From a bacterium BMS3Bbin08 (GTDB lineage Bacteria > Nitrospirota > Thermodesulfovibrionia > UBA6902 > BMS3Bbin08): 64,000 bases of DNA. The stretch is from positions 128,070 through 192,069 of the forward strand of contig BDTR01000030.1 of NCBI GenBank assembly GCA_002897775.1. The letters run 5' to 3'. The notes under the pieces were generated by a model, which worked only from the letters and a program-made list of their open reading frames with translations, did not search any database and was not told the origin of the DNA. Numbering within the stretch: the stretch's first letter is position 1; every line of letters starts with the position of its first letter. Made by a program: the position numbers and the translations under genes. Positions 4,109 to 34,890 of the stretch are shown piece by piece.

Positions 4109-7100
4109 TCAGGGGACCAGTTCTATCAGAAGGTTTTTTAATACCCTGAAAATTCCAGGCCATTTTTCCCCCGCGAGGTCGATTTCAAAACCGCCCTGTG
4201 GAATAAATTTGACCGGTAGTTTTCTTTTTCGCGAAATTTTCAGGATCTCCTGAGGGGTTACAGATGCTTCAGGCATAAAGAGTATCTTTATCCTGCCGCG
4301 GGAATTCTGTATCCTGGTAATGGCAAGTTTTTTTGCCAGCACCTTGAGCTCCATTATCTGGAGCAGTCTGCGTGTCTCCTCAGGGGGTGTGCCGAACCTG
4401 TCCCCGAGCTCTTCAACAAGCTCTTTGAGATCCCGGCTGTCCTTTGCCAGGGCGATCTTTCTGTAGATACTTAGTCTGAGGTCAGGGTTCTCAATATACG
4501 CCTCCGGGATAATAGCCGTTGTTCTGAGTTCAAGCACAGGCTCGACCCTTGGCGGTATTTTTTCTCCCTTGAGTTCCGCCACTGCCTGTTCGAGCGTCTC
4601 AACGTACAGGTCAAAGCCAATTGCCAGTATGTGGCCTGATTGTTCAGCGCCAAGCAGGTTGCCGGCTCCCCTGATCTCAAGGTCCCTGAGCGCCAGCCTG
4701 AACCCGGCGCCCAGGTAGCCAAGTTCCTGGATCGCCTGAAGTTTTTTCCTTGCCTGCGCTGTGATCACGTCATCTCCAGGTATAAGAAAATAAGAATACG
4801 CCCTGACATTGGACCGGCCCACCCTTCCCCTCAGCTGATACAGGTCTGCCAGCCCGAACTTATCAGCCCGGTCAATGATTATTGTATTTGCGCTGGGAAT
4901 ATCAAGGCCTGAACCTATGATGGCGGTTGATACCAGTATATTGGTCTCTTTCCTGAAAAAAGACCTCATTATCTGTTCAAGTTCTTTTTCTCTCATCTGC
5001 CCGTGTGCCACAGCTACCCTGGCCCCGGGCACCAGTTCCCTTATGTAATTTGCTACACTGTAGATGTCCTGAACGCGGTTATGCACAAAGAAGGCCTGTC
5101 CGTCGCGGTCCAGTTCTTTCTGAAGTGCCTGCTCAATGATCCCCGGATCGAACCTCGCGACAAAGCTCCTGACAGCGAGCCTGTCCTCAGGCGGGGTCTC
5201 TATCACGCTCATCGCCCTTATTCCGGAGAGGGCCATGTGGAGCGTCCTTGGAATGGGTGTCGCGGAAAGCGTGATTATATCGACAGCGCTCCTGAGTGAT
5301 TTAATTTTTTCTTTATGTGTCACTCCGAACCTGTGTTCCTCGTCTATGACAAGCAGCCCCAGGTCGTAAAAACCTACGTCTTTTGCAAGGAGCCTGTGGG
5401 TTCCGATAATAATGTCTATATCTCCGTTGGCAAGGGCTCTGAGGGTCTGCTTTTGCTCTGCCCTGTTCTTAAAACGGCTGATGAAGTCGATCTTTACGGG
5501 AAAGGCTGAAAATCTTGAGGTGAACGTATCAAAATGCTGTTCAGCCAGTATTGTTGTCGGTACGAGCACAGCTGCCTGTTTTGAGTCATAAACCGCCTTA
5601 AAACACGCCCTCATTATCACCTCTGTCTTGCCGTATCCGACATCCCCGCATAACAGGGTATCCATGGGAGTCAGGCTTTCCATGCTGCGCTTTATCTCAT
5701 TTATTGCGGTTAACTGGTCAGGGGTCTCTTCATAAAGAAAAAACCCGTCAAACTCTCTGTGCAGTTCAGTGTCTTTTGAAAAGGCATGTCCTTTTGCTGT
5801 TGTGCGCCTGGCATATATGGCCAGTAGTTTCCGGGCCATGTCCTTTATCTTCTGTCTGATCTTGCGCCTTGTTCTCTGCCATGTCTTTCCCCCAAGTTTG
5901 TCCATTTTCGGCCTTACACTTTCAGGGGCGTGGTATTTCTGAACATGGTCGATGCGCTCAAGAGGGACATAGAGCCTGTCGCCGCCAAGATACTCCATAA
6001 CGATGAAGTCGCCTTCGTGGTCTTCTATTGCCTGCTTTTTAAGGCCGATGAACTTACCTATGCCGTGTTCCATGTGCACAAGATAATCACCCTCATTAAA
6101 ATCCTCTATTGATGAGATAAGCCTGGAAACCCTTGACCTCTTTATGGATTTAAACACCGGTTTTTTACCGAAGATATCTCTTTCAGCAAGAACGATGGAG
6201 TTCTGACAGACAAAGCCCCTTCCTGCTTTACCAATGGCGATTACCGGGCTTCGCGGGTGGCTGACAGCCGCCGCGCCGCTGAGGACAGGCACTTCAAGTT
6301 CCGCCTCTGAGAACAGTTCTTTCAGCCTCTTTGCCTGGCCCTCTGACGAGCAGACCATCAATATAAAATACAGTTTCCAAAGTTCCCCGACTCTTTTTAT
6401 AAAGTCTTCCAGCGAGCGTCTTTCTTCCTGCAAAAGCCCGAATCCGGCTGTGCTTCTTATATTGAGATCAAAACCTTCTCCCTTCAGGGGAAGAGAGGTA
6501 ATGTAAAAGGGCTCTTTATCCTGCAGCATGGCAGACAGGTCAGGGAACTGCCTTTTTATATCATCAGGCTCGTTTAATATCAGGGTGCTCCGGTCAAGGA
6601 CATCTATCAGGTTTGGTCCCTGATCCGGTTCAACAGCAGGGCCTATTGACACATCTTCCAACTTCTTTACTGTCCGCTGTGTATCTGTATCAAAAACCCT
6701 TAAAGACTCGATCTCATCACCAAAGAACTCCATTCTTACCGGGAGCTCCTGTTCAGGCGGGAATACATCGAGGATACCCCCCCTTATGCTCATTTCGCCC
6801 GGGCCTGATACAAGCGGGACCTGAAGATAACCATAGCTTTCAAGGGTACTGATGACAGAGTCCCTGTCAGCGGCAGAGCGGTTCATTACTTTTAACAAAG
6901 GGAACTTATCTCCTGGCCATATTGGAGACAACGCGGCCTCAACAGACGCGATGAACGCGATCTTCCCGCTGTACAGGCGCCGGAGATTTGCCAGGCGCAG
7001 AGGATCACCTTCAGGCGGTATCAGTACAGGTTCGTCACTGCCAAGCGCTTTGGACCAGAAGACCGCGTCAGAATAAAGTTCACCGGCAGCGGCCTCAGCG

Positions 7101-7912: not shown

Positions 7913-9103
7913 TTATCCTGAAGCGCGCGAGATCTCCTGCCAGAAACTTCTTCCTGAGAGGTCCGTGGTTTCAGGTCTTTTTATTGATAATGCCTCCAGT
8001 ACGGTAGCACCGACATCAGAAAAGCCCTGCCTTATTCCAAGGTTCACCCCTGCCTTAAGAGACGGACCGTAAACCAGCAGGGGCACGTATTCCCTTGAGT
8101 GGTCTGTGCCTGTGGTGGTTGGGTCACAGCCGTGGTCTGCTGTTATAATCAACATGGAGTCCTCATTAATAATATCAAGCACTTCAGACAATCTGCTGTC
8201 AAAGGCCGCTAATGCCCGCGCGTATCCCTCAGCGTTATTTCTGTGGCCGTACAGCGTATCAAAATCCACCAGCGTCTCAAACACAAGCCCTTTTTTAAGG
8301 GCTTTAAAAGAAGCCAGGGTCTTTGACAGGGAGTCGTCATTTTCCGACACGGATATGGCATGAGTGAAGCCTTTGCCCGCGAATATGTCTGTTACCTTTC
8401 CGATACTGATCACATCCATGCCGGCTTCCGCGACATATTCAAGGACTGTTTTATTCAAAGGCGGGATACTGTAATCTTTTCTCCCGGCGGTCCTTGTAAA
8501 AGAGCCGCTTTTGCCGATGAAAGGCCTGGCAATGACCCTGCCCACATTATGAGGATAGCGGAGGATATCCCTTGCTGTCCCGCACATCCTGTAAAGTTCC
8601 CGAAGAGGGACCACTTCTTCGTGGGCTGCTATCTGGAACACGCTGTCAGCAGATGTATAGACAATGGGGCTTCCTGTCCTGATGTGTTCCGGGCCGAGCT
8701 CTTTTATGATCTCTGTGCCTGAAGCCGGTTTATTGCCCAGTATCTTTTTGCCGATGGCGGTCTCGAACGCATTGATCACTTCAGGGGGAAACCCATCGGG
8801 ATAGACCGGGAACGGCTCAACAACAGGCGCTCCCATCATTTCCCAGTGGCCGGAGGTGCTGTCTTTGCCATTTGATATCTCTGACATTCTTCCAAAACAT
8901 CCAATGACATTAGCGGGTCTTTCGATCCCTTTGAAATCACCCAGGAAACCAAGCCCAAGTGCTTGCAGATTAGGCAGTTTCAGGCCGTTGACAAATCTGG
9001 TTATGTTGCCAAGGGTATTGCTCCCCGTGTCTCCGTATTCACCGGCGTCAGGCAGTTCCCCTATACCAAGTCCGTCCACAACGATCAGTAAGATCTTCCG
9101 CAT
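7913..9103 (-). CDS. deoB: phosphopentomutase
   Basis: 396 aa. The N-terminus ILLIVVDGLGIGELPDAGEYGDTGSNTLGNI and the segment TADHGCDPTTTGTDHSREYVPLLVYG match conserved DeoB metal-binding segments. Confidence 0.8.
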   Translation of the reverse strand: MRKILLIVVDGLGIGELPDAGEYGDTGSNTLGNITRFVNGLKLPNLQALGLGFLGDFKGIERPANVIGCFGRMSEISNGKDSTSGHWEMMGAPVVEPFPVYPDGFPPEVINAFETAIGKKILGNKPASGTEIIKELGPEHIRTGSPIVYTSADSVFQIAAHEEVVPLRELYRMCGTARDILRYPHNVGRVIARPFIGKSGSFTRTAGRKDYSIPPLNKTVLEYVAEAGMDVISIGKVTDIFAGKGFTHAISVSENDDSLSKTLASFKALKKGLVFETLVDFDTLYGHRNNAEGYARALAAFDSRLSEVLDIINEDSMLIITADHGCDPTTTGTDHSREYVPLLVYGPSLKAGVNLGIRQGFSDVGATVLEALSIKRPETTDLSGRSFWQEISRASG

Positions 9104-20142: not shown

Positions 20143-20345
20143 ACAGAATTTACAAAATGCTTGAATATTCTTATCTATAGTGGCAGAATTAGAATTAATT
20201 ATGGCATATTATTTTAAACAGGCAGAGAGGTTGATCTATGATGCCTGAGAATGAGCCTGTCATGGCCATATCTGCAGCATAGTGAGTGCTTTCGAAAGGT
20301 GCGCGCCGGATCGACTGGGAACATTGGGATTAAAGGGGGACGGAA

Positions 20346-20662
20346 TGACGGGTAAAGCATATATTGAAATACCGGAAGAAAAAATAGCCCGGTTCTGCGG
20401 GAAATGGAAGATACGTGAATTCGCGCTCTTCGGTTCTGTCCTGAGGGATGATTTCAGACCTGACAGCGACATTGACGCGCTGGTTACTTTTGATGAGGAT
20501 GCTCAACACTCCCTGTTTGACCTTGTTAATATGGAAGATGAACTCAGGGAGATTTTTGGGCGCAATGTGGACCTGGTAAGCCGCAAAGGCATTGAAGCAA
20601 GCAGAAATTATATACGAAGAAACGCAATATTGAACTCCGCAGAGGCGGTATATGCAGCGTGA
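20346..20662 (+). CDS. nucleotidyltransferase (MNT/MntA-type antitoxin)
   Basis: Polymerase beta-type nucleotidyltransferase motif GS...D.D (FALFGSVLRDDFRPDSDIDALVTF). Overlaps the downstream DUF86 gene. Shine-Dalgarno-like AAGGGGGA lies upstream of the ATG at 20346. Confidence 0.8.
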
Positions 20663-20996
20663 CCGTGAGTTTTTCCTCGACATATTGGAGGCGGCAAAAC
20701 TCGCTGTCTCTTATGTCGGTGAAAAGTCTAAGGAAGATTTTTTAAAAGACCCTCAGTGTCAGGACGCTGTTATCAGACGGCTTGAGATAATAGGTGAAGC
20801 ATCCCGACGGATTTCTGCGGAGACACAGGCGGATTTTCCTGATTTGCCGTGGGGTGAAATGATCGGAATGCGGAATGTGATGATCCATAAGTATGACGAC
20901 GTGGACCCCGGTATAGTCTGGAAGACAGTAAAAAGTAACCTCCCAAAACTTATTACATCATTTAAAACGATACTCGAAGCGCCTGATAAAGAGTAA
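20652..20996 (+). CDS. HepT-like (DUF86, HEPN superfamily) toxin
   Basis: 114 aa with the DUF86 layout (RLEIIGEASRRIS...MRNVMIHKYDDVD). Overlaps the upstream MNT gene by 11 nt. Confidence 0.8.
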   Translation: MQRDREFFLDILEAAKLAVSYVGEKSKEDFLKDPQCQDAVIRRLEIIGEASRRISAETQADFPDLPWGEMIGMRNVMIHKYDDVDPGIVWKTVKSNLPKLITSFKTILEAPDKE

Positions 20997-21304: not shown

Positions 21305-22138
21305 TTGGAAACAAGTATAGCAGTTTTTAAGGGTAAGCAGATCAGAAAAACTATTCATAACAACGAATGGTGGTTTTCAATTATCGATGTAATTGAGGTG
21401 CTCACCGGAACTGAGCGACCACGAAAGTACTGGAATGATTTAAAGAAAAAGCTGGCGGATGAAGGATATGACGAGTTGTCCGAAAAAATCGGACAACTGA
21501 AAATACAGTCGGCAGACGGGAAATACTATAAGACAGACTGTTCAAATACAGAGACAATGTTCAGGCTTATCCAGTCCATTCCATCTCCCAAAGCTGAACC
21601 TTTCAAGCGCTGGCTGGCAAAGGTTGGCTACGACCGTGTCCAGGAAATTGAAGACCCTGAACTCGGCACGAAAAGGACAAGGGCTTTATACAAGGCGAAG
21701 GGCTATTCGGACGACTGGATTGAAAAGCGCATGCGCGGTATTGCCATTCGTGAAGAGCTTACAGATGAGTGGAAAAAGAGGGAAGTGAAAGAGAAAAGGG
21801 AATACGAGATTCTCACTGCCGAGATTGCAAAAGCGGCATTCGGCATAACACCCGGCCAACACAAAAAACTTAAGGGACTGAAACGTCAAAACCTTCGTGA
21901 CCACATGAACGATCTCGAGTTAATTTTCTCAATGCTTGGCGAAGCGGCAACAACTGAGATAACGCGTGTTGATGATGCAAAAGGATTTAGTGAAAACAAA
22001 AAGTCAGCCCGTAAGGGTGGCGGCGTTGCAGGTAAGGCTCGGAAAGACCTTGAAAAAAAGACCAGGAAGAAGGTTGTTTCCCGTGAGAACTACCTGACCG
22101 AACCGGAGAGCCGGAAGAAGTTGGCAAGAAAGAAGTAA
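21305..22138 (+). CDS. Bro-N domain protein, DinD-like (DNA-damage-inducible protein D family)
   Basis: N-terminal Bro-N (FKGKQIRKTIHNNEWWFSIIDVIEVL). The central region resembles E. coli DinD (LKGLKRQNLRDHMNDLELIFSMLGEA). Lys/Arg-rich C-terminus. Confidence 0.7.
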   Translation: METSIAVFKGKQIRKTIHNNEWWFSIIDVIEVLTGTERPRKYWNDLKKKLADEGYDELSEKIGQLKIQSADGKYYKTDCSNTETMFRLIQSIPSPKAEPFKRWLAKVGYDRVQEIEDPELGTKRTRALYKAKGYSDDWIEKRMRGIAIREELTDEWKKREVKEKREYEILTAEIAKAAFGITPGQHKKLKGLKRQNLRDHMNDLELIFSMLGEAATTEITRVDDAKGFSENKKSARKGGGVAGKARKDLEKKTRKKVVSRENYLTEPESRKKLARKK

Positions 22139-22314: not shown

Positions 22315-24492
22315 ATGACAGAATATTATGCGCATAGTCTTGAAGGAAGGCCGCCGGATGAATGGCATCTCCTGGATGAGCACTTGGAGAATGTTGCAAG
22401 AATGGCCGCTGAATTCGCTAACTATTTTGGCGCCAAAACATGGGGTGAATTAGCGGGGGCAAATCATGACCTTGGCAAAGGCACACGGCCTTGGCAGGCA
22501 TACCTTCGGAAATCAAATGATATTATTGACGAATTTGCCAAGTATTATAAAGGACATCCGAATCATGCTGCTGTAGGTGCGCAATGGCTTAATAACAACT
22601 CAAGGGAAGCTGGAAAATTGTTGGCATACTGTATCGCAGGACACCATGGGGGTCTGCCTAGTTGGAGCGATTCTCCTGTTGCCTCATTGGAGATGAAGCT
22701 TCAACAACCGTTTCCTGAAGTTGCTGTGCCTTGTACAGTCTCGGAATTTCCAACCACCCTGCCTTTTCCCATTGATTCGGATCGTTTTGGGTTTCAGTTG
22801 CAATTTTTTGTTCGAATGCTTTTTTCCTGTCTTGTAGATGCGGATTTTCTTGATACGGAAGCATCTCTGGACAAAAAGAGGTCCGGCTGGCGTTCTACCT
22901 ATCCTGGAATCAGCGAACTTCATGAGAGATTCTGGGCAAATTTCAATGTGTTGCGTGAAGGAGCTGATCAAACCTTAAATGTGAACCGGCAACGGGAACT
23001 GGTTCTTGAAGACTGCTTGCGGGCAGCGGCGTTGGAACCAGGATTGTTTTCACTGACGGTTCCAACCGGCGGCGGTAAGACTCTGGCCTCGCTGGCCTTG
23101 GCACTGAATCATGCGATAAATAAAGAAAAGAGAAGAATTATTTACGTCATTCCTTTTACCAGCATCATTGAGCAGAATGCCAAGGTTTTCCGTGATATGC
23201 TGGGTGAAAATGCTGTTCTGGAACACCATTGCAATTTTCTACCTGACGATTCGAATTGGCAAACCAGGCTTGCAACTGAAAATTGGGACGCCCCTGTAGT
23301 AGTAACGACCAATGTCCAGTTTTTCAATTCTTTTTATGCCAATAAGACATCGAAGTGCCGGAAGCTGCATAATGTGGTTGAGAGTATCATTATCTTTGAT
23401 GAAGTTCAGGCCATACCGGTTGAAAAGTTGAAGCCATGCCTGGAAGTCATCAAGGAGTTGTCACTGAACTATGGTGTTACCTCGATTTTATGCACGGCCA
23501 CGCAACCTGCCATTGAGTTTTCTGACCAATTCACTACCGGACTGCAGAATGTCACGGAAATTATTCAGGATGTCCCATCGCTCTTTACAGCCTTGAAACG
23601 AACGGAGGAGGCTTTTATTGGTGAACTCAGTGAGCAGGATATTGCAGAACGGTTGCTGGAACATGAACAGGTCCTGTGCATCGTGAATACTCGGCAGCAG
23701 GCACTGGATATCTTTAATGCCTTGCCTGAGTCCGATGCAAATTTTCATCTGAGCGCCTTGATGCACCCAGTCCACCGGACGAAAAAATTGAATGAAATCA
23801 GAAACAGATTGTCGCCCGCAAACAAATTGCCGTGTCGGGTGATCAGCACACAGTTGATTGAAGCAGGTGTTGATGTGGATTTTCCCTGTGTATTTCGGGC
23901 AGTTGCCGGAATCGACAGTATTGCCCAGGCTGCAGGGCGATGTAATCGGAACGGCCTGAGCAAGGTACCATGCAAAGTGTATGTGTTTGAGTTTTCGAAA
24001 GATGGTGTTTGCTCTTTCTTTCGTCATGCTGCACAATCAGCCGCGAAGCTCTTTGAACCATTTGCCGGAAAACTTACAGATCCTGAATGTGTCCGTGAGT
24101 ATTTCGCAGATTTTTTTTGGAAAAATGAACAACGAATGGATGAGGACGGTATCATCGAAAATTACTGTCAACCGGCGCAATCAGGTAATATTCAATTTCG
24201 TGACATTGCAGAATTCCAGATGATTAAATCAGCTACCAAGCCAGTAGTCATTGCTTTGGAAGAAAATGCTATCGAACTGGTGAGTTCGCTCGAATTTGCA
24301 GAGCACAAAGGAGGAATTCTTCGGAAGCTCCAGCAGTTCAGTGTTCAAATTTACCCGTATCAATTAGAAGAAATAAAGAATTGGCTGGAAAGTCCGGTGC
24401 CGGGCGTCTGGGTCTTGCGTTCGCAAGAGCTCTACTCCGAGACTACCGGGCTCAGGTGTAAGCCACCTGAAGGACAAGCATTTTTTGGTTAA
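22315..24492 (+). CDS. cas3: CRISPR-associated helicase/nuclease Cas3 (HD domain plus SF2 helicase), type I
   Basis: 725 aa. N-terminal HD nuclease (YAHSL...HDLGK...AGHHGG). DExH helicase motifs (VPTGGGKT, IFDEVQ). Confidence 0.93.
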   Translation: MTEYYAHSLEGRPPDEWHLLDEHLENVARMAAEFANYFGAKTWGELAGANHDLGKGTRPWQAYLRKSNDIIDEFAKYYKGHPNHAAVGAQWLNNNSREAGKLLAYCIAGHHGGLPSWSDSPVASLEMKLQQPFPEVAVPCTVSEFPTTLPFPIDSDRFGFQLQFFVRMLFSCLVDADFLDTEASLDKKRSGWRSTYPGISELHERFWANFNVLREGADQTLNVNRQRELVLEDCLRAAALEPGLFSLTVPTGGGKTLASLALALNHAINKEKRRIIYVIPFTSIIEQNAKVFRDMLGENAVLEHHCNFLPDDSNWQTRLATENWDAPVVVTTNVQFFNSFYANKTSKCRKLHNVVESIIIFDEVQAIPVEKLKPCLEVIKELSLNYGVTSILCTATQPAIEFSDQFTTGLQNVTEIIQDVPSLFTALKRTEEAFIGELSEQDIAERLLEHEQVLCIVNTRQQALDIFNALPESDANFHLSALMHPVHRTKKLNEIRNRLSPANKLPCRVISTQLIEAGVDVDFPCVFRAVAGIDSIAQAAGRCNRNGLSKVPCKVYVFEFSKDGVCSFFRHAAQSAAKLFEPFAGKLTDPECVREYFADFFWKNEQRMDEDGIIENYCQPAQSGNIQFRDIAEFQMIKSATKPVVIALEENAIELVSSLEFAEHKGGILRKLQQFSVQIYPYQLEEIKNWLESPVPGVWVLRSQELYSETTGLRCKPPEGQAFFG

Positions 24493-24495
24493 TAA

Positions 24496-26821
<2,326 letters not shown>

Positions 26822-26822
<1 letters not shown>

Positions 26823-27688
26823 TGAGTGATACGATCAAAAACCGCTATGAGTTTGTCCTGTTGTTTGACGTAAAAAATGGAAATCCGAATGGTGACCCGG
26901 ACGGAGGGAATCTTCCCCGGATCGATCCCGAGACCGGGCATGGAATCACAACGGATGTCTGCCTGAAGCGTAAGATTCGAAATTACGTGGAGTTGGTTAA
27001 GGATAATAAGACACCGTTTAATATTTACGTTAAGGAAAAAGCGATTCTTACAGAACGTCGGCAGCCAGCCTATGAGGCAGTGGCAGACGAAAAAGATAAA
27101 TCTGCAAAAATCAGCAAAGCACGAGCCTGGATGTGCAAAAACTTTTTCGATGTTCGGACTTTCGGCGCTGTCATGTCGGTAAAAGAAAACAACTGCGGCC
27201 AAGTGCGAGGTCCGGTGCAGTTTGCCTTTTCGCAAAGTATCGATCCAGTCGTCCCACTGGAAGCAAGTATTACCCGAATGGCTGTAGAGACCAAAAAGGA
27301 ATCATACGCCCAGGATGGAGACAACCGGACCATGGGCCGGAAGACTTATATCCCCTACGGCCTGTATCGTGTTCACGGTTTTATCTCAGCACCACTTGCC
27401 AAACAGACCGGTTTCTCCGAAGAGGACCTTGAATTGTTCTGGAATTCCCTGCAAAACATGTTCGATCACGACCGGTCCGCGGCCCGTGGCGAAATGGCGG
27501 CTAGGAATTTGATCGTCTTCAAGCACGACAGCGAACTTGGCAACGTCCCGGCCCATAAGCTCTTTGATTTAGTAAAAGTATCGCGTTCAAATGACAGCAA
27601 CGGGCCTGCACGGGTATTTTCAGACTATGAGGTGAAAGTTGACAGCGCAAATGTTCCGGGAGGCGTAACTCTAGAGGAGAAGTTTTGA
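26822..27688 (+). CDS. cas7: Cas7c (Csd2) backbone subunit, type I-C
   Basis: [27 protein letters not shown] is the Csd2/DevR family N-terminus. Confidence 0.9.
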
Positions 27689-28258
27689 ATGACTGAAAAG
27701 AAACAATCACCCCAACTAATCCCCCCGCACGGCGGTTACCAGGAACTCCAGTCCTACAAGATGTCGGAGATCGTGTATGACGCTACAGTAGTATTCTGCA
27801 ACCGCTTCATCAACATCCGCTCCCGCACTCATGACCAGATGGTGCAGGCGGCGCGAAGCGGGAAGCAGAATATCGCTGAGGGCAGCATGGCATCGGGCAC
27901 TTCAAAGAAGTTCGAGCTTAAGCTCGTCAGTGTGGCGCGGGCAAGCCTTGAAGAAGTGCTTCTGGATTTTAAGGACTATCTGAGGCAGAAGGGGCTTGTG
28001 CTTTGGACAAAGGATCATCCAAAGGCCGGTGAAGTGAGAAAACTCTGCTATCAAAAGAATAGGTCTTATACGACTTATAAGACCTATCTTGAGCAGTCGC
28101 CACCGGAGGTGGCGGCCAATACCATGATCTGTCTGATTCACCAGACAAACTATCTGCTGGACAAGCAGTTAAGGGCCCTTGAACAAGCCTTTCTGAAAGA
28201 AGGCGGCTTTACTGAAAGACTCTACCATGCGCGATCAGGGTCGCGCAAAAAGAAATAG
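27689..28258 (+). CDS. four-helix-bundle protein (23S rRNA intervening-sequence / Avd-like family) with a ~70-aa C-terminal extension, embedded in the cas operon
   Basis: LQSYKMSEIVYDATVVF...QMVQAARSGKQNIAEGSMASGTSKKFELKLVSVARASLEEV matches the family pattern (Y.L...NIAEG.....KEF......A.GSL.E). Its start overlaps the cas7 stop (TGAATG). cas4 starts 9 nt after its stop. Confidence 0.65.
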   Translation: MTEKKQSPQLIPPHGGYQELQSYKMSEIVYDATVVFCNRFINIRSRTHDQMVQAARSGKQNIAEGSMASGTSKKFELKLVSVARASLEEVLLDFKDYLRQKGLVLWTKDHPKAGEVRKLCYQKNRSYTTYKTYLEQSPPEVAANTMICLIHQTNYLLDKQLRALEQAFLKEGGFTERLYHARSGSRKKK

Positions 28259-28266
28259 GTCATATA

Positions 28267-28940
28267 TGAGTTATAAGCCCTATAAAGAAGATGATCTTGT
28301 TCAGCTTTCAGCCTTACAGCATTTTGCTTTCTGTGAGCGGCAGTGCGCGCTGATTCACATTGAACAGATATGGAGCGAGAATATGTTCACTGCTGAAGGA
28401 AAGATCATGCATGAAAGGGTGGATACTTCAAAGTCTGAATCACGGGGAGCAGTCCGCATGGAATTCAGTGTGCCTTTGCGTTCACTCAGACTCGGACTGA
28501 CCGGCAAGGCTGATGTTGTTGAATATCACAGGCAGGATGATGGGACATGGTTGCCCTTCCCCGTGGAATACAAACGCGGTAAACCAAAGGCGGATGATTG
28601 CGACAAGGTCCAGCTCTGCGCGCAGGCAATGTGCCTTGAAGAGATGATGAGTGTTGAAATACCGAAAGGAGCTTTGTTTTACGGTCGGATCAGGCGGAGA
28701 GAAGATGTGATCTTTGACAATGCATTACGAAAGGAAACAGAAAATACTGCGAAAAAGGTTCACGAGCTTATTGAATCACAAAAAACTCCTGGACCTGAAT
28801 ATTCAAAAAGATGCAAATCCTGTTCATTGTTTCAGCAGTGCATGCCTGAGCTGTGCTCGAAAAAGAATAAAGCAAGCAGATATCTGTCAAATATTTTAAA
28901 ACAACTGGATGCTGAGGTCTCGAATAATGGGACAGGCTGA
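28267..28940 (+). CDS. cas4: Cas4 (RecB-like nuclease with a 4-Cys cluster)
   Basis: MSYKPYKEDDLVQLSALQHFAFCERQCALIH begins with a Cys. C-terminal cysteines CKSCSLFQQC. Canonical position before cas1. Confidence 0.88.
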
Positions 28941-28962: not shown

Positions 28963-29994
28963 ATGAAAAAACATCTTAACACATTATTCGTCACCACCCA
29001 GGGGGCATATCTTTCCAAGGATGGGGAAACCGTGTCAGTTAAGGTTGATGATGAAATCCGCTTGCGTATTCCAATTCACACAATTGGCGGTATTGTATGT
29101 TTCGGTCAGGTAAGCTGCAGTCCTTTTTTAATGGGGTTTTGCGCTAAAAATAACGTTGCTGTATCATTCCTGACTGAATACGGACGCTTTCTGGCAAAGG
29201 TTCAGGGGCCGGTATCCGGGAATGTGCTGTTACGAAGGGAACAATACCGGCTTGCTGATGATGAGACTGTTTCTTTAAATATTTCCAAATCAGTTATTAC
29301 AGGCAAACTTGTTAATACCAGAACAGTATTGCAGAGGTTTTTGAGAGACCACGCCGATAAACCAAATGCAGATGCAGTGAAACAGGCGTCAAAACTTATA
29401 AGCTCAACATTAAGACGGGTATATAACGAAACCTCGCTTGACGTGATAAGAGGATTTGAAGGAGATTCGGCTCGTATCTATTTCAGTGTTTTCGATAATC
29501 TTATCACTGCCAGTAAGAAAGAATTCTTTTTCAGGGAACGTAACAGGAGGCCTCCTTTGGATAGGGTGAACTGTCTGTTGTCATTTCTGTATACGATTGT
29601 AATGCATGATGTACGCTCTGCGCTTGAGACAGCAGGGCTTGATCCGGCGGTAGGGTTCCTCCACAAAGACCGGCCGGGCAGGTATGGACTCGCGCTGGAT
29701 ATGATGGAGGAATTCAGGCCGTTTCTTGCTGACAGGCTGGTTCTTTCTCTGATAAATCTCAGTCAGGTCAATGCAAAGGGATTTGAAGAAAAAGAAAATG
29801 AAGCTGTGCTAATGGATGATGATACAAGAAAGGCTGTCCTTGTTGCATATCAGAACCGGAAACAGGATGAGATTATGCATCCATTTCTTAATGAAAAAGT
29901 GACGATTGGATTGCTTTTTCATACGCAGGCATTATTGCTTGCAAGATATTTGCGCGGCGATTTGGATGCTTATCCGCCCTTTATCTGGAAGTGA
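28963..29994 (+). CDS. cas1: Cas1 integrase, type I-C
   Basis: 343 aa with the typical Cas1 sequence. Confidence 0.92.
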   Translation: MKKHLNTLFVTTQGAYLSKDGETVSVKVDDEIRLRIPIHTIGGIVCFGQVSCSPFLMGFCAKNNVAVSFLTEYGRFLAKVQGPVSGNVLLRREQYRLADDETVSLNISKSVITGKLVNTRTVLQRFLRDHADKPNADAVKQASKLISSTLRRVYNETSLDVIRGFEGDSARIYFSVFDNLITASKKEFFFRERNRRPPLDRVNCLLSFLYTIVMHDVRSALETAGLDPAVGFLHKDRPGRYGLALDMMEEFRPFLADRLVLSLINLSQVNAKGFEEKENEAVLMDDDTRKAVLVAYQNRKQDEIMHPFLNEKVTIGLLFHTQALLLARYLRGDLDAYPPFIWK

Positions 29995-30003
29995 GGATGA
30001 AAT

Positions 30004-30291
30004 ATGTTTGTTATAGTGAGCTATGATGTTTCAACTGAAGACGGCGGACAGCGGCGCCTGAGAAGGGTCGCCAGGGCATGTCAGGATTATGGACAGAGAG
30101 TTCAGTATTCTATTTTTGAATGTATGATTAATCCGGCGCAATGGACTTTTTTAAAAGAACGATTGATCAGTGAAATTGATCCTGAAAAAGACAGTCTGAG
30201 ATTTTATTACCTCGGCTCTAACTGGAAGCGCCGCGTGGAACATGTAGGGGTCCGGAAATCGCCTGATCAGGACGGTCCGTTGATCGTGTAA
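30004..30291 (+). CDS. cas2: Cas2
   Basis: 95 aa (MFVIVSYDVSTEDGGQRRLRRVARACQDYGQRVQYSIFEC). Confidence 0.92.
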   Translation: MFVIVSYDVSTEDGGQRRLRRVARACQDYGQRVQYSIFECMINPAQWTFLKERLISEIDPEKDSLRFYYLGSNWKRRVEHVGVRKSPDQDGPLIV

Positions 30292-30474: not shown

Positions 30475-31536
30475 GTCGCCCCCCATGCGGGGGCGTGGAT
30501 TGAAACCATATTAATTTGTATGGGCACGCCTGAAGGTTCGTCGCCCCCCATGCGGGGGCGTGGATTGAAACTTGCTAATACACTTTCATTTGAGATAGCG
30601 CATGGTGTCGCCCCCCATGCGGGGGCGTGGATTGAAACGCTTACCATCAATACAAACTGCTGAATATGCGTGTCGCCCCCCATGCGGGGGCGTGGATTGA
30701 AACTAGATAATCGCTGTTGGATACGCCAAGCAGTAAGTCGCCCCCCATGCGGGGGCGTGGATTGAAACTTGATAGCACTGATGGAGATACAGAAGAAACT
30801 GCGTCGCCCCCCATGCGGGGGCGTGGATTGAAACCTGTTAATATTGCAGGGATGGGTCAAATAGAAGTGGTCGCCCCCCATGCGGGGGCGTGGATTGAAA
30901 CTTAAAGAAAGTAACATATTCAAAAGAAAAAACAAGTCGCCCCCCATGCGGGGGCGTGGATTGAAACTAAAGTGTTCACGGCGTTGGCTTCACTGGACAC
31001 TAGTCGCCCCCCATGCGGGGGCGTGGATTGAAACAAATTAGTTTAACTAATGGAGGTGGCGGCATGGAAGTCGCCCCCCATGCGGGGGCGTGGATTGAAA
31101 CCCCGATTCAGGCAGAGGATTTTATCTTCGAGGCCGTCGCCCCCCATGCGGGGGCGTGGATTGAAACTATCTTCTTAGGATCATAGGTAACGCTTACACG
31201 TGTCGCCCCCCATGCGGGGGCGTGGATTGAAACAGTTTTGGGTTTTATAATTATTGATTCCATAGTCGTCGCCCCCCATGCGGGGGCGTGGATTGAAACT
31301 TGATAGCCATAGGTTTTTCGCACAATAAATAATGTCGCCCCCCATGCGGGGGCGTGGATTGAAACTGTCAATAATGTAACCAGCAATATCGGAGGTAACA
31401 TGTCGCCCCCCATGCGGGGGCGTGGATTGAAACGGCGCAAAGCTGTTCTATGTATACGACAGGACGTTGTCGCCCCCCATGCGGGGGCGTGCCTGTCTGC
31501 CGGTCTACGACTCGTATAGTAGGCAGGGATTGAAAC
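30475..31536 (+). CRISPR. CRISPR array: 16 repeats of the type I-C 32-bp repeat GTCGCCCCCCATGCGGGGGCGTGGATTGAAAC and 15 spacers of 33-35 bp. The last repeat carries a 36-bp insertion. A ~180-bp AT-rich leader lies between cas2 and repeat 1.
   Basis: Repeat starts at 30475, 30540, 30607, 30672, 30737, 30803, 30870, 30936, 31003, 31070, 31136, 31202, 31268, 31334, 31403 and 31469. Repeat 16 is split as GTCGCCCCCCATGCGGGGGCGTG, then 36 bp, then GATTGAAAC. Confidence 0.97.
31492..31527. mobile_element. 36-bp palindromic insertion (CCTGTCTGCCGGTCTACGACTCGTATAGTAGGCAGG) inside CRISPR repeat 16, between GCGTG and GATTGAAAC
   Basis: The repeat is otherwise intact on both sides. The termini CCTGyCTGCC/GGCAGG are inverted. 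The same left junction recurs at 35094. Confidence 0.7.
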
Positions 31537-31601: not shown

Positions 31602-31922
31602 ATGATGAATAAAATCGACCTGGAAATCGTTGAAAGATTTAGAGAGCTTGTATCACAGAAAGTAAAAGTACATGAACTCAGAGTGTTCGGCTCCCGCGCC
31701 AGAGGTGACGCTACTGCAGAGTCGGACCTTGATGTACTAATTGTTGTAGAACATCTTGACCATTCCATTGAAAGATATATAAGCGATTGCGCGTGGGAAG
31801 CAGGCTTCCCTGCTGATGTTGTAGTTGTTCCGATCCCCATAAGTATCGATGCTATCAAGAACAGCCCAATACGCGAATCCATCTTCATCAAGAATGTCTA
31901 TAATGAGGGAATTGCTGTATGA
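31602..31922 (+). CDS. minimal nucleotidyltransferase (MNT) of a HEPN/MNT toxin-antitoxin pair
   Basis: VFGSRARGDATAESDLDVLIVVE is the polymerase beta-type nucleotidyltransferase motif. Overlaps the HEPN gene by 4 nt. Confidence 0.8.
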   Translation: MMNKIDLEIVERFRELVSQKVKVHELRVFGSRARGDATAESDLDVLIVVEHLDHSIERYISDCAWEAGFPADVVVVPIPISIDAIKNSPIRESIFIKNVYNEGIAV

Positions 31923-32314
31923 CTGATTTGATGGCTCTGATACAATACCGGCTGAATGAGGCGGATGATTCCATAAAAGAAGCTGATGTTCTTCTAAGAG
32001 AAGGTATGAGCATGCGTGCCGTAATGAACAGGTTATATTATGCAATGTTTTACGCCGTATTGGCCCTTTTACAGAAAAAGCAAATTGCCACTTCAAAACA
32101 TTCAGGCGTAATTTCTCACTTTGATAAGGAATTTATAAAAAAAGGAATATTTGATAAAGAGCTATCTAAAGCATTGCATCGCGCGTTTGATCTCAGGCAG
32201 AAGGGTGATTATATGGAAGATGCAGAAGTAACGAAAGAAGATGTGGATGAGATGATCCCCAAAGTAGCCGATTTTGTTAGCAAAGTAAAAGATCACCTGC
32301 TTGGCAGTCATTAA
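31919..32314 (+). CDS. HEPN domain protein (partner of the MNT gene)
   Basis: 131 aa, all-alpha, with an R-x(4-6)-H-like motif (RAFDLRQKGDY). Classic MNT-HEPN operon organisation. Confidence 0.7.
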   Translation: MTDLMALIQYRLNEADDSIKEADVLLREGMSMRAVMNRLYYAMFYAVLALLQKKQIATSKHSGVISHFDKEFIKKGIFDKELSKALHRAFDLRQKGDYMEDAEVTKEDVDEMIPKVADFVSKVKDHLLGSH

Positions 32315-32648: not shown

Positions 32649-33455
32649 ATGGAAAAAATAACAGGCTTAGGAACAATTGACAGGGAGCGGTTAACCGCAT
32701 TAATTCGCGGTACAAAAGGCACTATTTCAGTTGCCGAGTCAGCGGATATTTTAAAGGTATCTTCAGTTAGCGCAGCGAAGATGCTTGCTCGCTGGGCGAA
32801 AAAAGGGTGGCTGTCACGTGTGCGCCGCAGTATATATATATCCATTCCTCTTGAATCCCGCACAACCGATGTTCCTCTTGAAGACCCGTGGCTTGTTGCT
32901 GATCGTTTATTCAGCCCGTGTTATATCGGGGGATGGAGCGCGGCTGAGTACTGGAATCTCACTGAACAAATCTTTCGCACTATAGCAGTAATGACAGTAC
33001 AAAAACCAAGAAATCGTACCCCTAATATCAGAGGAACAAATTTTCTGCTTCGCACTGTTCCGGAAAGAACCATGTTTGGGCTAAAATCTGCCTGGAGGGG
33101 ACAGGTGAAAGTATCAGTATCTGACGCAACCAGGACAATTCTTGATATGCTCAATGATCCGGGACTCGGTGGCGGAATACGGTCGACTGCCGATATGTTT
33201 AAAGATTATTTAAAATCGGAAAACAAAAATCTGGACATGCTCATCGACTATTCCACGCGTTTTGGAAATGGCGCGGTCTTTAAACGTCTTGGTTTTATGC
33301 TGGAGCGTTTTTCTCCGGACGAAAACACTATCATTGAAAAGTGCAAATCGCAATTAACCAAAGGGAACTCTAAACTTGATCCAAAACTCGGGGCGGACAA
33401 GCTCGTTACACGCTGGAAGTTATGGATTCCAAAAAATTGGGTAAAGGAGCAATGA
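32649..33455 (+). CDS. AbiEi-type antitoxin (type IV toxin-antitoxin; winged-HTH regulator)
   Basis: 268 aa with an N-terminal wHTH (LTALIRGTKGTISVAESADILKVSSVSAAKMLARWAKKGWLSRVRRSIY). Gene pair with the AbiEii gene downstream. Confidence 0.75.
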   Translation: MEKITGLGTIDRERLTALIRGTKGTISVAESADILKVSSVSAAKMLARWAKKGWLSRVRRSIYISIPLESRTTDVPLEDPWLVADRLFSPCYIGGWSAAEYWNLTEQIFRTIAVMTVQKPRNRTPNIRGTNFLLRTVPERTMFGLKSAWRGQVKVSVSDATRTILDMLNDPGLGGGIRSTADMFKDYLKSENKNLDMLIDYSTRFGNGAVFKRLGFMLERFSPDENTIIEKCKSQLTKGNSKLDPKLGADKLVTRWKLWIPKNWVKEQ

Positions 33456-33456
33456 C

Positions 33457-34890
33457 GTGATTGATCGCCGGGAGATCATGGAGTTTTCCAGAGAGTGGGG
33501 ACTGACTGCAAATGTCATTGAAAAAGATTATGTGCTTGGATGGGTATTGGCCGGGATTGCCGGTCATGATAAGCTGGGTTCTGAATGGGTGTTTAAAGGA
33601 GGGACCTGTTTAAAGAAGTGTTACTTTGAAACATATCGCTTTTCCGAAGACCTGGATTTTACCGTAGTGAATGCTGAGCATTTGAACGAAGAATATCTTC
33701 TGTCTTCATTTCGTGATGTCGCCGGATGGATATACGAATCTACCGGCATAGAAATCCCGGCAGATACGATCCGTTTTGAAATCTATACAAATCCACGCGG
33801 CGCAACATCTGTTCAGGGAAGGATTGGTTACCGGGGACCAATGCAGCCTGGCGGGGCCCTTCCCCGGATAAAACTGGATTTAACAAATGATGAAATATTA
33901 GTTCTTGATCCCGCTGTACGGGAAGTCCATCATCCTTATTCCGACAGACCGGAAGACGGCATCTCCGCAAGGTGCTATTCTTTCGAAGAAGTGTATGCGG
34001 AAAAAGTCAGGGCATTGGCGGAACGTGAAAGACCGCGCGATCTTTATGACGTTATACATCTTCATCGTCATGACAGTTTAAGAACTAATCGTGAGTTAAT
34101 AATGAGCACGCTTGAAAAGAAGTGTGAATTTAAAGGGATATCCGTACCGACTATAGAAGCACTGGAAAATAAACCCGAGCGTGCCGAACTGGAAGCTGAA
34201 TGGGAGAATATGCTGGCACACCAATTGCCTGTTTTACCGCCGTTTGGACAATTCTGGCAGGAACTTCCTGAGGTGTTTGAATGGTTATATCGCGCAGTTG
34301 AAAAAGTTGCGGCTCTTCCGATATCTTCCGGACGTTATGAGGTTGATGAAACATGGCATGCCCCTGCAATGGCACAAGCCTGGTATGCTAATGCACCGCT
34401 TGAAATAATACGTTTTGCAGCAGCTAACCGTTTATGTGTGAATTTAAAATATAATGGTACAAATCGTGTCATAGAGCCATATTCCCTGCGCAGGACAAAA
34501 GATGGAAATTTGTTATTATATGCCGTCAAACACAATACACACGAGGACAGATCCTATAGAATTGACAGGATACAGGGAGCAGAAGCGACCAAGACGCCAT
34601 TTACGCCTCGTTATGTAGTCGAACTGACTGCTGCCGGACCGATTTCGGCACCTCCAACAGAACGGACATCATCCGGATATGGATTAACCAATACCAGAAA
34701 ATCAAGAATCGGTCGGGGTAGGTCTATAAGCCGTTCAATGAGTTTTGGGCCTAAATATATAATCGAATGTACTTATTGCGGTAAGAAATTCAATCGAAAA
34801 AGCTATACTACCAGTCTAAATGCTCACAAGGATAAAAGCGGATATCCTTGCCCGGGAAGGATTGGGTATATGGTAGATACGAAGTATTAG
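33457..34890 (+). CDS. AbiEii/AbiGii-family nucleotidyltransferase toxin fused to a C-terminal WYL-like domain and a zinc ribbon
   Basis: N-terminus: DUF1814/AbiEii motifs (WVFKGGTCLKKCYFETYRFSEDLDFTVV). Residues ~310-375: LKYNGTNRVIEPYSLRRTKDGNLLLYAVKHNTHEDRSYRIDRI matches the WYL-domain pattern. C-terminus: CTYCGKKF...CPGRIGY. GTG start at 33457 with AAGGAG 7 nt upstream. Confidence 0.7.
   Translation: MIDRREIMEFSREWGLTANVIEKDYVLGWVLAGIAGHDKLGSEWVFKGGTCLKKCYFETYRFSEDLDFTVVNAEHLNEEYLLSSFRDVAGWIYESTGIEIPADTIRFEIYTNPRGATSVQGRIGYRGPMQPGGALPRIKLDLTNDEILVLDPAVREVHHPYSDRPEDGISARCYSFEEVYAEKVRALAERERPRDLYDVIHLHRHDSLRTNRELIMSTLEKKCEFKGISVPTIEALENKPERAELEAEWENMLAHQLPVLPPFGQFWQELPEVFEWLYRAVEKVAALPISSGRYEVDETWHAPAMAQAWYANAPLEIIRFAAANRLCVNLKYNGTNRVIEPYSLRRTKDGNLLLYAVKHNTHEDRSYRIDRIQGAEATKTPFTPRYVVELTAAGPISAPPTERTSSGYGLTNTRKSRIGRGRSISRSMSFGPKYIIECTYCGKKFNRKSYTTSLNAHKDKSGYPCPGRIGYMVDTKY

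Follow-up and report, generated by a model that had tools for sequence, protein, structure and literature searches.

Type I-C is a compact, much-used model and tool system among CRISPR-Cas systems, and its operon is regarded as a set of seven genes with nothing between cas7 and cas4. What is the role of an eighth gene that stands at exactly this junction? We addressed this question for a locus of the Nitrospirota bacterium BMS3Bbin08 (GenBank assembly GCA_002897775.1), in a stretch of 64,000 nt covering positions 128,070 to 192,069 of contig BDTR01000030.1. This whole stretch is referred to here as the window, and positions are those of the window unless another locus, designated by an L number, is named. 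The gene (27689-28258, + strand) encodes a 189-aa four-helix-bundle protein with a pI of 9.6. Our favoured reading, to which we give a probability of about 0.45, is that the gene is a resident cassette carried within operons, whose influence on cas4-cas1-cas2 is regulatory at most.

Profile searches, in which all Cas assignments scored far above curated thresholds, identified a complete type I-C operon on the + strand in the order cas3-cas5c-cas8c-cas7c-X-cas4-cas1-cas2, where X is the gene in question. A preliminary description of this DNA, made from the sequence alone, had reported a 189-codon open reading frame (ORF) between cas7c and cas4, and this was borne out. The upstream neighbour is cas7c (Csd2; 26822-27688, + strand; PF05107 364 bits, TIGR02589 404 bits) and the downstream neighbour is cas4 (28266-28940, + strand; PF01930 104 bits, TIGR00372 150 bits). 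The junctions differ slightly from those first described. The gene had been said to overlap the cas7 stop codon and to be followed by cas4 after 9 nt; its ATG (27689-91) in fact abuts the cas7 TGA (27686-88) with 0 nt between them, and the cas4 ATG supported by homologue alignments (28266) lies 7 nt after the TAG stop codon (28256-58). A second in-frame ATG for cas4 occurs upstream, at 28227. By direct reading, a GAGGAG Shine-Dalgarno sequence (27674-27679, + strand) lies within the 3' end of cas7, 9 nt before the ATG of the gene. The gene is tightly packed with its neighbours and is probably translationally coupled to them. The data are also consistent with the proposed co-transcription with the cas genes, because the + strand has no terminator-like site from cas7 to cas4, and because shuffled sequence yields promoter-like sites at least as often as the cas locus does as a whole.

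The product had been assigned to the four-helix-bundle family of rRNA intervening sequences (IVS), to which the Avd proteins of diversity-generating retroelements (DGRs) are related. This membership is real, although weak by sequence and strong by fold. The protein scored 25.6 bits against PF05635, under the gathering score of 33.8, and 26.7 bits against TIGR02436, over the cut-off of 24, and both hidden Markov models matched residues 43-91 only. Because a sequence search of the Protein Data Bank returned only a marginal match (E 0.5), a fold search was needed. The predicted model is an up-down four-helix bundle superposable on the IVS proteins Xcc0516 (2GSC) and BT_0352 (2RLD), a strong match at the level of the fold. 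Helices 1-3 of the bundle (residues 21-101; 27749-27991, + strand), delimited by the secondary structure of the model, the profile matches and invariant columns, contain the family motif AARSGKQNIAEG (residues 54-65). The helix-2 motif (G/A)xxRxxxSxxxNxxE(G) of the IVS-type family, as quoted by Zhang, Doak & Ye (2014, NAR; PMC3936711), is present as QAARSGKQNIAEG (residues 53-65) and is invariant across 57 homologues. We conclude that the protein belongs to the IVS/Avd-type family and fold.

A C-terminal extension of ~70 residues had also been noted. An extra C-terminal part is indeed present; it is, however, a known domain and not a novel addition, because residues 139-187 match the curated '4helix_suffix' model TIGR04258 from end to end (model positions 1-49 of 49; 86.1 bits against a cut-off of 40). 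In the predicted structure the suffix domain (28103-28255, + strand) supplies the bundle's fourth helix (139-170) and one additional helix (173-188), with the basic tail RSGSRKKK. According to the same model, the true addition is a 37-residue insert between helices 3 and 4 (residues 102-138; 27992-28102, + strand), which consists of two short helices and the repeat-encoded segment NRSYTTYKTY. The protein therefore differs from Xcc0516 and BT_0352 in length (189 aa against ~115 aa), in the insert and in the extra C-terminal helix, as well as in its PF05635 score below gathering, its location in a cas operon rather than in rRNA, and the in-frame palindromic DNA element in its gene. Its placement as a direct member of the TIGR04258 family of NCBIfam agrees with the database names of its homologues. 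Within that family the window gene belongs to a distinct, ultra-conserved subclade, since a 40%-identical TIGR04258 member from Prevotella lacks the repeat segment NRSYxTYKxY. The retrievable TIGR04258 curation holds nothing on function, CRISPR linkage or an embedded repeat, and the databases contain an identical protein under the name 'S23 ribosomal protein [bacterium BMS3Abin10]'.

A constraint at the nucleotide level was observed inside the gene. Codon analysis of 110 homologues found near-maximal synonymous usage except at codons 124-133, which are frozen. Asparagine is encoded there by AAT in 71 of 73 cases and arginine by AGG in 94 of 104, and the three tyrosine codons are TAT in 102 of 106, 104 of 108 and 94 of 97 cases, whereas tyrosine codons elsewhere are split ~50/50. 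At codon 128 the amino acid is variable, yet the third base is G in 104 of 108 distinct sequences. A repeat search located at 28053-28087 an element, AAAAGAATAGGTCTTATACGACTTATAAGACCTAT, with perfect 12-bp arms (28059-70 and 28076-87), which encodes KNRSYTTYKTY. A second copy, 83% identical, lies at 28249-28283 and spans the stop of the gene (TAG) and the start of cas4 (ATG), with an AGGT Shine-Dalgarno-like core; each of the two 35-nt copies is palindromic.

The consensus of the element has a 9-nt period, ATAGGTCNT ATNNGACNT ATARGNCCT AT, with units ATAGGWCCTAT. The sequence ATAGGNCNTAT occurs four times in the window against 0.34 expected, all four at the two element sites, and the fetched loci, 1.56 Mb in all, contain ATAGGTCNTAT 228 times where ~3 occurrences would be expected. 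The internal array is essentially universal in the subclade, and an array lies over the stop codon in ~40% of Cas4-linked loci and ~20% of others. Upstream arrays were found at 14 of 50 non-CRISPR loci and at 0 of 50 Cas-linked loci, and six arrays stand alone, >300 nt from any gene copy. The element was also seen in L054, at 7940-7990, 8362-8392, 8555-8590 and 5440-5475. Computed folding of the internal copy as an RNA hairpin gave -17.5 kcal/mol (z -5.8), and on the minus strand this copy scores as terminator-like. Nothing similar to the element was found in Rfam or in the searchable literature.

Several other explanations of the conserved segment were tried and rejected. A programmed -1 frameshift at the internal repeat would lead to an out-of-frame TAG where ordinary four-helix-bundle proteins end; there is no conserved slippery heptamer, and codons 122-123 vary. 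An internal translation start at codon 128 does not fit a codon of the form NNG with T as its second base in only 25% of cases. An antisense ORF (27902-28141) was dismissed as the cause because the constraint is limited to 30 nt. A Xer/dif-like 11-6-11 site was also considered and is improbable, as the arms seem unlike dif and the flanking arrays are 9-nt tandem units. Further analogies are repetitive extragenic palindromes and bacterial interspersed mosaic elements (REP/BIME), the RNase III-cleaved stems of rRNA IVS, and pdif modules. All share with the present element short palindromes at module edges and stand-alone hairpins. However, the element described here comes without a REP-associated tyrosine transposase, a Xer site or an rRNA context, has a 9-nt period, and has a unit that also lies in frame in coding sequence.

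The two window copies are offset by 196 nt (65 codons plus 1), and both read N-R-S-Y in the frame of the following gene, so that loss of the intervening DNA would join the bundle core to Cas4 in one reading frame. The MSYKPY N-terminus of the window Cas4 is derived from the repeat, since Cas4 proteins in loci without the four-helix-bundle gene start M-Y-x-E-D-D and lack the element motif. A short gene, 51-53% identical and without the suffix domain, was observed in L141 (1311-1690) and L159 (227-598). It ends just after a repeat-like NGPYSTFKAY segment and overlaps the cas4 start (ATGA), and may be a deletion derivative between two repeat copies.

Is the gene confined to CRISPR loci? The survey of its relatives argues against a Cas-specific role. 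The family is recurrently present in cas operons, and it is neither exclusive to them nor predominant there: no cas gene occurred within the ~8 kb fetched flanks of 52 of the 110 full-length copies. Among the close homologues (65-75% identical), one in two belongs to an operon that has no relation to CRISPR. Neighbours of the non-CRISPR copies are heterogeneous, with 268 proteins falling into 209 clusters, and include TrpE, AbgT, HlyD, a Mur ligase, a histidine kinase, DinG-, RecQ- and UvrD-like helicases, HsdR and HsdS. Between CRISPR-linked and other copies identity is 71%, with only two positions (Q21/K and F94/Y) that consistently tell them apart. This similarity, together with an 81%-identical copy in a type I-E locus that lacks cas4, leads us to infer that the function of the protein is independent of its genomic context.

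Two further proposals, the Avd component of a DGR and a phage-derived anti-CRISPR or anti-CRISPR-associated gene captured by the locus, are effectively refuted. The fold is like that of Avd (4DWL, 8UB7), but sequence identity is ~10% and the protein has extra segments. A crude Y[AVIMLC]DD scan for reverse-transcriptase (RT)-like ORFs of at least 100 aa found none in the window, where no template/variable repeat pair was seen and no second copy of the four-helix-bundle gene was found. No copy of the family was found among 50,697 phage records or in the IMG/VR viral contigs, PHROGs gave no match with E <0.19, no PADLOC model matched, and the gene is vertically co-inherited with cas1. In a collection of 72,556 plasmids there was a single distant copy, a solitary gene of Prevotella with 40% identity. 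Nor is the gene part of an rRNA IVS element: it lies between protein-coding cas genes, and no Rfam family, rRNA or other, matched 27300-28700.

Relatives of the protein are abundant. More than 8000 database proteins match it, and clustering at 50% still leaves 4063 clusters at E <= 1e-3. The best 120 protein matches all show at least 77% identity across their entire length, and come from Thermodesulfobacteriota, Nitrospirota, Planctomycetota (Brocadia, Scalindua) and Proteobacteria. Species-representative genomes hold at least 566 loci with a relative, the best 80 of which are 66-81% identical and span >8 phyla. These 80 best genome loci, probed with the Cas proteins of the window, made up the first context sample; cas genes were present in 29 of them, ~25 of which have the order cas7-X-cas4. 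To avoid ascertainment bias, a second sample was anchored on Cas1 and comprised 80 metagenome loci with a Cas1 at least 71% identical, of which 63 were assessable, the region upstream of cas4 being readable. The gene stands directly upstream of cas4 in 30 of the 63 (~48%). A short or fragmentary version was found there in 3 loci, other cargo at the cas7|cas4 junction in 13 and a different upstream gene in 6, while 8-11 loci have an 'empty' junction with the cas7 stop codon 5-154 nt from the cas4 ATG. The preliminary description had raised the prospect of a strain-specific insertion with an independent promoter, and this fails for a gene present upstream of cas4 in about half of the related loci.

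The placement in a type I-C operon between cas7 and cas4 recurs in related loci; specificity for I-C or for Cas4, however, does not hold. In L001 (5163-9789) the 81%-identical copy lies between cas5e and cas1e of a type I-E locus, cas6e-cas7e-cas5e-X-cas1e-cas2e, without cas4, and L002 and L014 have the I-B-like order cas3-X-cas4. In all I-C, I-B-like and I-E cases the site of the gene is the boundary between effector and adaptation genes.

Other cargo at the cas7|cas4 junction comprises Fic/RhuM-like, Fic, Bro-N, DUF1016/PD-(D/E)XK-like, nucleotidyltransferase-like and toxin-antitoxin-like ORFs, sometimes together with the four-helix-bundle gene (L014, L086, L088, L090-L092, L098, L110, L112-L114, L118, L121, L140, L143, L152, L156 and L157). 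The Bro-N and Fic assignments were confirmed by Pfam, and the remaining labels were given by inspection. In loci with Fic-type cargo (L014, L086, L088, L093, L098 and L157), a tandem of three TTAGGTAAYAA-like units precedes the cas4 ATG at a distance of ~70 nt, a distinct short repeat that has a TAGGT core in common with the four-helix-bundle element. The copy number and length of the four-helix-bundle gene also vary. L085 (4195-5988) has one copy before cas4 and one after, L076 (7104-8570) has a tandem pair, and L029 (7322-8549) and L044 (7196-8567) have an N-terminal fragment followed, after ~600 nt, by a full copy. In L046 (7995-9452) the frame runs on to 485 aa, which may reflect a fusion or a missed stop.

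How long has the gene been resident, and under what selection? Identities and distances were compared in 46 loci in which the gene accompanies cas4 and cas1. Pairs of four-helix-bundle proteins average 78% amino-acid identity, against 74% for pairs of Cas1 and 65% for pairs of Cas4. Where the residues are identical, four-fold degenerate sites agree in only 42% of cases, so the similarity reflects purifying selection and not recent transfer. A strain-specific recent insertion was rejected, given saturated four-fold sites and a widespread gene. In pairwise comparisons between loci, the distances of the protein track those of both Cas4 and Cas1 (Mantel r 0.61 and 0.63, respectively), values reached by 0 of 2000 permutations. 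An unbootstrapped neighbour-joining tree of the 110 full-length copies places the Cas-linked copies in one large clade, with only two non-cas copies inside it, and the non-CRISPR copies in another.

When the Cas1-anchored loci are arranged in Cas1 tree order, gene-bearing loci are interspersed with the empty and other-cargo sites, which supports dispensability, and the deepest branches also carry the gene. The nearest Cas1 relative of the window, L082 (85%), has an empty junction. This pattern is most simply explained by a gene that was present ancestrally and was then lost or replaced several times. In this gene, strong purifying selection and joint inheritance with the adaptation genes go together with frequent loss.

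Pseudo-fragments of the cas4 5' end (~30-54 codons) were observed up- or downstream of the gene in L008 (7797-7943), L124 (4588-4720), L014 (6672-6785 and 8548-8655), L012 (8558-8647) and L013 (8585-8668). In L008, L124 and L014 a cas4(1-54) pseudo-fragment lies upstream of the gene, with 75-88% nucleotide identity to the functional cas4 5' end. In L012 and L013, ~30 cas4 codons have been carried into a different CRISPR locus, the Cas1 of which groups with that of the type I-E locus L001. The fragments are scars of old illegitimate recombination that moved the gene together with cas4 segments, and they fit transfer at the level of the module.

Findings of this kind could also mark a genuine adaptation accessory. 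The protein would be an Avd-like oligomeric scaffold that binds Cas4, Cas1-Cas2 or prespacer DNA, aids spacer capture, trimming or integration, and is held in a fixed ratio with Cas4 by translational coupling. We regard this as rather unlikely, while acknowledging that it accounts for a good deal. The gene invariably borders the adaptation genes on their 5' side, it is frequent in related loci with its Cas-linked copies largely in one clade, it co-diverges with Cas4 and Cas1 while being more conserved than both, and it was imported with cas4 in the old recombination events. Avd itself offers the precedent of a four-helix-bundle cofactor of a nucleic-acid enzyme (PMC10053308), and the family has been found beside Cas4 and Cas6 (PMC3936711). 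An adaptation accessory, however, is difficult to reconcile with equally conserved copies in trp, transporter, cell-wall and restriction-modification operons that are set apart by only two clade-specific residues, or with repeated loss and replacement among close Cas1 relatives. The copy beside Cas1e without Cas4 leaves the protein with no constant Cas partner, and the absence of a PADLOC match points the same way. To our knowledge, moreover, well-studied I-C systems lack the four-helix-bundle gene, which also counts against such a role.

At the other extreme, the gene may be a purely selfish, IVS-like passenger whose protein serves only the spread or retention of the element, with no CRISPR effect and with the cas7|cas4 junction as a permissive landing pad. 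One conceivable variant is an Avd-like cofactor that lets an RT supplied in trans copy the hairpin-bounded RNA. The unrelated cargo at the same junction in other loci, the repeats that flank non-CRISPR copies and occasionally stand alone, and the very diverse contexts in >8 phyla all suit a passenger, as does a family named for ORFs in 23S rRNA intervening sequences and scattered over rRNA insertion sites of bacteria of the candidate phyla radiation. We nevertheless consider it unlikely. The synonymous sites are saturated, with no sign of recent spread, and the Cas-linked copies are largely monophyletic rather than repeatedly inserted. The near-absence from phage, viral and plasmid collections and the single copy in a window without an RT-like ORF in the crude scan are not what a mobile passenger predicts. 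At the cas7 side of the gene we found no target-site duplications and no conserved non-coding or otherwise defined ends. The very strong purifying selection on a non-mobile single copy is also hard to explain by selfishness alone. If the gene is a passenger, the locus would be a clean example of defence operons tolerating and retaining cargo at module junctions.

Between these two, we favour the view that the gene has long been resident as one copy of a cassette that rides in operons and encodes a basic four-helix-bundle protein of the IVS/Avd type. Such cassettes would form a subfamily without promoters of their own, housed in the operons of other genes and marked by the 9-nt-periodic, AT-rich palindrome, with one copy in frame within the gene and further copies often over the stop codon or upstream. 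In this reading the cassette lodged at the effector/adaptation boundary in the ancestor of a large group of type I adaptation modules; since then it has been inherited together with cas4-cas1-cas2, as the comparisons above show. Translation is probably coupled to that of cas7, with ribosomes passed on to cas4 via an ATGA overlap or, in the window, via a repeat-built TAG-N7-ATG. The basic charge of the protein, the Avd precedent and its own conserved palindrome suggest a nucleic-acid-binding protein whose likeliest target is its own repeat, in the form of an RNA hairpin or of DNA. Any consequence for CRISPR would be at most regulatory, a tuning of how the cas4-cas1-cas2 part of the transcript is translated or processed, or of how stable it is, and the protein would not be a subunit of Cascade or of the Cas4-Cas1-Cas2 integrase. 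The preliminary description had offered an accessory factor, a regulator or a hitch-hiking gene; the evidence speaks more for a resident hitch-hiker or a regulator than for a dedicated Cas subunit, without settling the choice.

In line with coupling, 27 loci have an (A/G)TGA overlap at the junction between the gene and cas4, and in at least 14 loci the stop codon lies inside the element, as in the window. Several results weigh against the cassette reading. Some 55% of Cas4-linked loci have the ATGA overlap only, without a repeat at the cas4 junction, so control of cas4 by the repeat is not general. The hairpin arms show no covariation (paired positions mean 9.07 of 11, against 8.92 with arms swapped between sequences), and they are so nearly invariant that covariation lends no support to an RNA structure. 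In the unbootstrapped tree the window copy and those of L084, L001 and L068 form a small group immediately outside the main Cas4-linked clade. The Mantel correlations do not discriminate between the cassette and accessory readings, because physical linkage alone would yield them. Finally, long residence, conservation above that of Cas1, and spread to I-E and I-B-like loci at the edge of the adaptation genes also fit a true adaptation accessory.

A bolder possibility, which we think improbable, is that the protein and the ATAGGWCCTAT palindrome together form an undescribed protein-plus-cis-site element inside operons, the protein recognizing its own repeat as RNA hairpin or DNA, and that type I CRISPR systems have co-opted this element as a device at the effector/adaptation boundary. 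If so, it could gate the translation or processing of cas4-cas1-cas2, or could be a recombination joint for swapping adaptation modules among I-C, I-B and I-E effector modules.

How much of this was known before? The family and its suffix domain are curated, and the preliminary statement that the family is not a known Cas component stands in so far as the protein falls outside the defined Cas families. It needs qualification, because PF05635 genes near Cas4 and Cas6 were already reported in 2014. That study found 23S_rRNA_IVP genes, of the same Pfam family as here, in 18 cas loci, often beside Cas4 or Cas6 (PMC3936711). It lists subtypes I-B, I-E, II-A and III-B, not I-C, contains no phylogeny, prevalence estimate, selection analysis or repeat element, and does not separate the suffix-domain subclade. 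Our literature searches on the repeat sequence and on links between four-helix-bundle proteins and Cas4 turned up this paper only. As far as the searches reach, the literature does not describe the ultra-conserved subclade at the I-C, I-B-like and I-E effector/adaptation boundary, its co-divergence with Cas1 and Cas4, the cargo hot-spot at cas7|cas4 or the embedded 9-nt-periodic palindrome.

Within a large environmental lineage of I-C-type adaptation modules, roughly every second one thus has an eighth gene at cas7|cas4, better conserved than Cas1, and in I-E and I-B-like loci this gene likewise stands at the border of effector and adaptation genes. Should it modulate adaptation-gene expression or spacer acquisition, the formation of CRISPR memory would be regulated at a new level, and there would be a first functional handle on the large, decades-old 'IVS protein/S23' four-helix-bundle family, of which only the Avd branch has a known role. 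The element frozen in coding sequence is a concrete and cheaply testable lead.

The remaining parts of the window locus are as expected for a type I-C system. The effector genes cas3 (22315-24492), cas5c and cas8c together occupy 22315-26822, and the adaptation module continues beyond cas4 with cas1 (28963-29994) and cas2 (30004-30291), all on the + strand and all assigned by profile matches. The CRISPR array (30475-31500, + strand), 3' of the cas operon, contains 16 copies of GTCGCCCCCCATGCGGGGGCGTGGATTGAAAC, a typical I-C repeat.

Further genes with possible defence functions surround the locus. Two small overlapping gene pairs that flank it (20282-20996 and 31602-32314) were judged by eye to be toxin-antitoxin-like, of the MNT-HEPN type (nucleotidyltransferase/HEPN). 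Downstream of the array, adjacent ORFs of 268 and 477 aa (32649-34890) resemble by eye an AbiEi/AbiEii-type pair (GGTCLKKCYF...FSEDLDF). Together, the AbiE-like and toxin-antitoxin-like pairs suggest, as judged by eye, a small defence island around the CRISPR-cas locus.

Just 5' of cas3, a 277-aa ORF (21305-22138, + strand) encodes a protein 75% identical to a Bro-N domain protein of L012, the gene for which lies directly upstream of the four-helix-bundle gene. The Bro-N family also occurs in L005, L013, L018 and L110, and is found as cas7|cas4 cargo in L090, L112 and L140, and so represents a second highly conserved companion of these cas loci.

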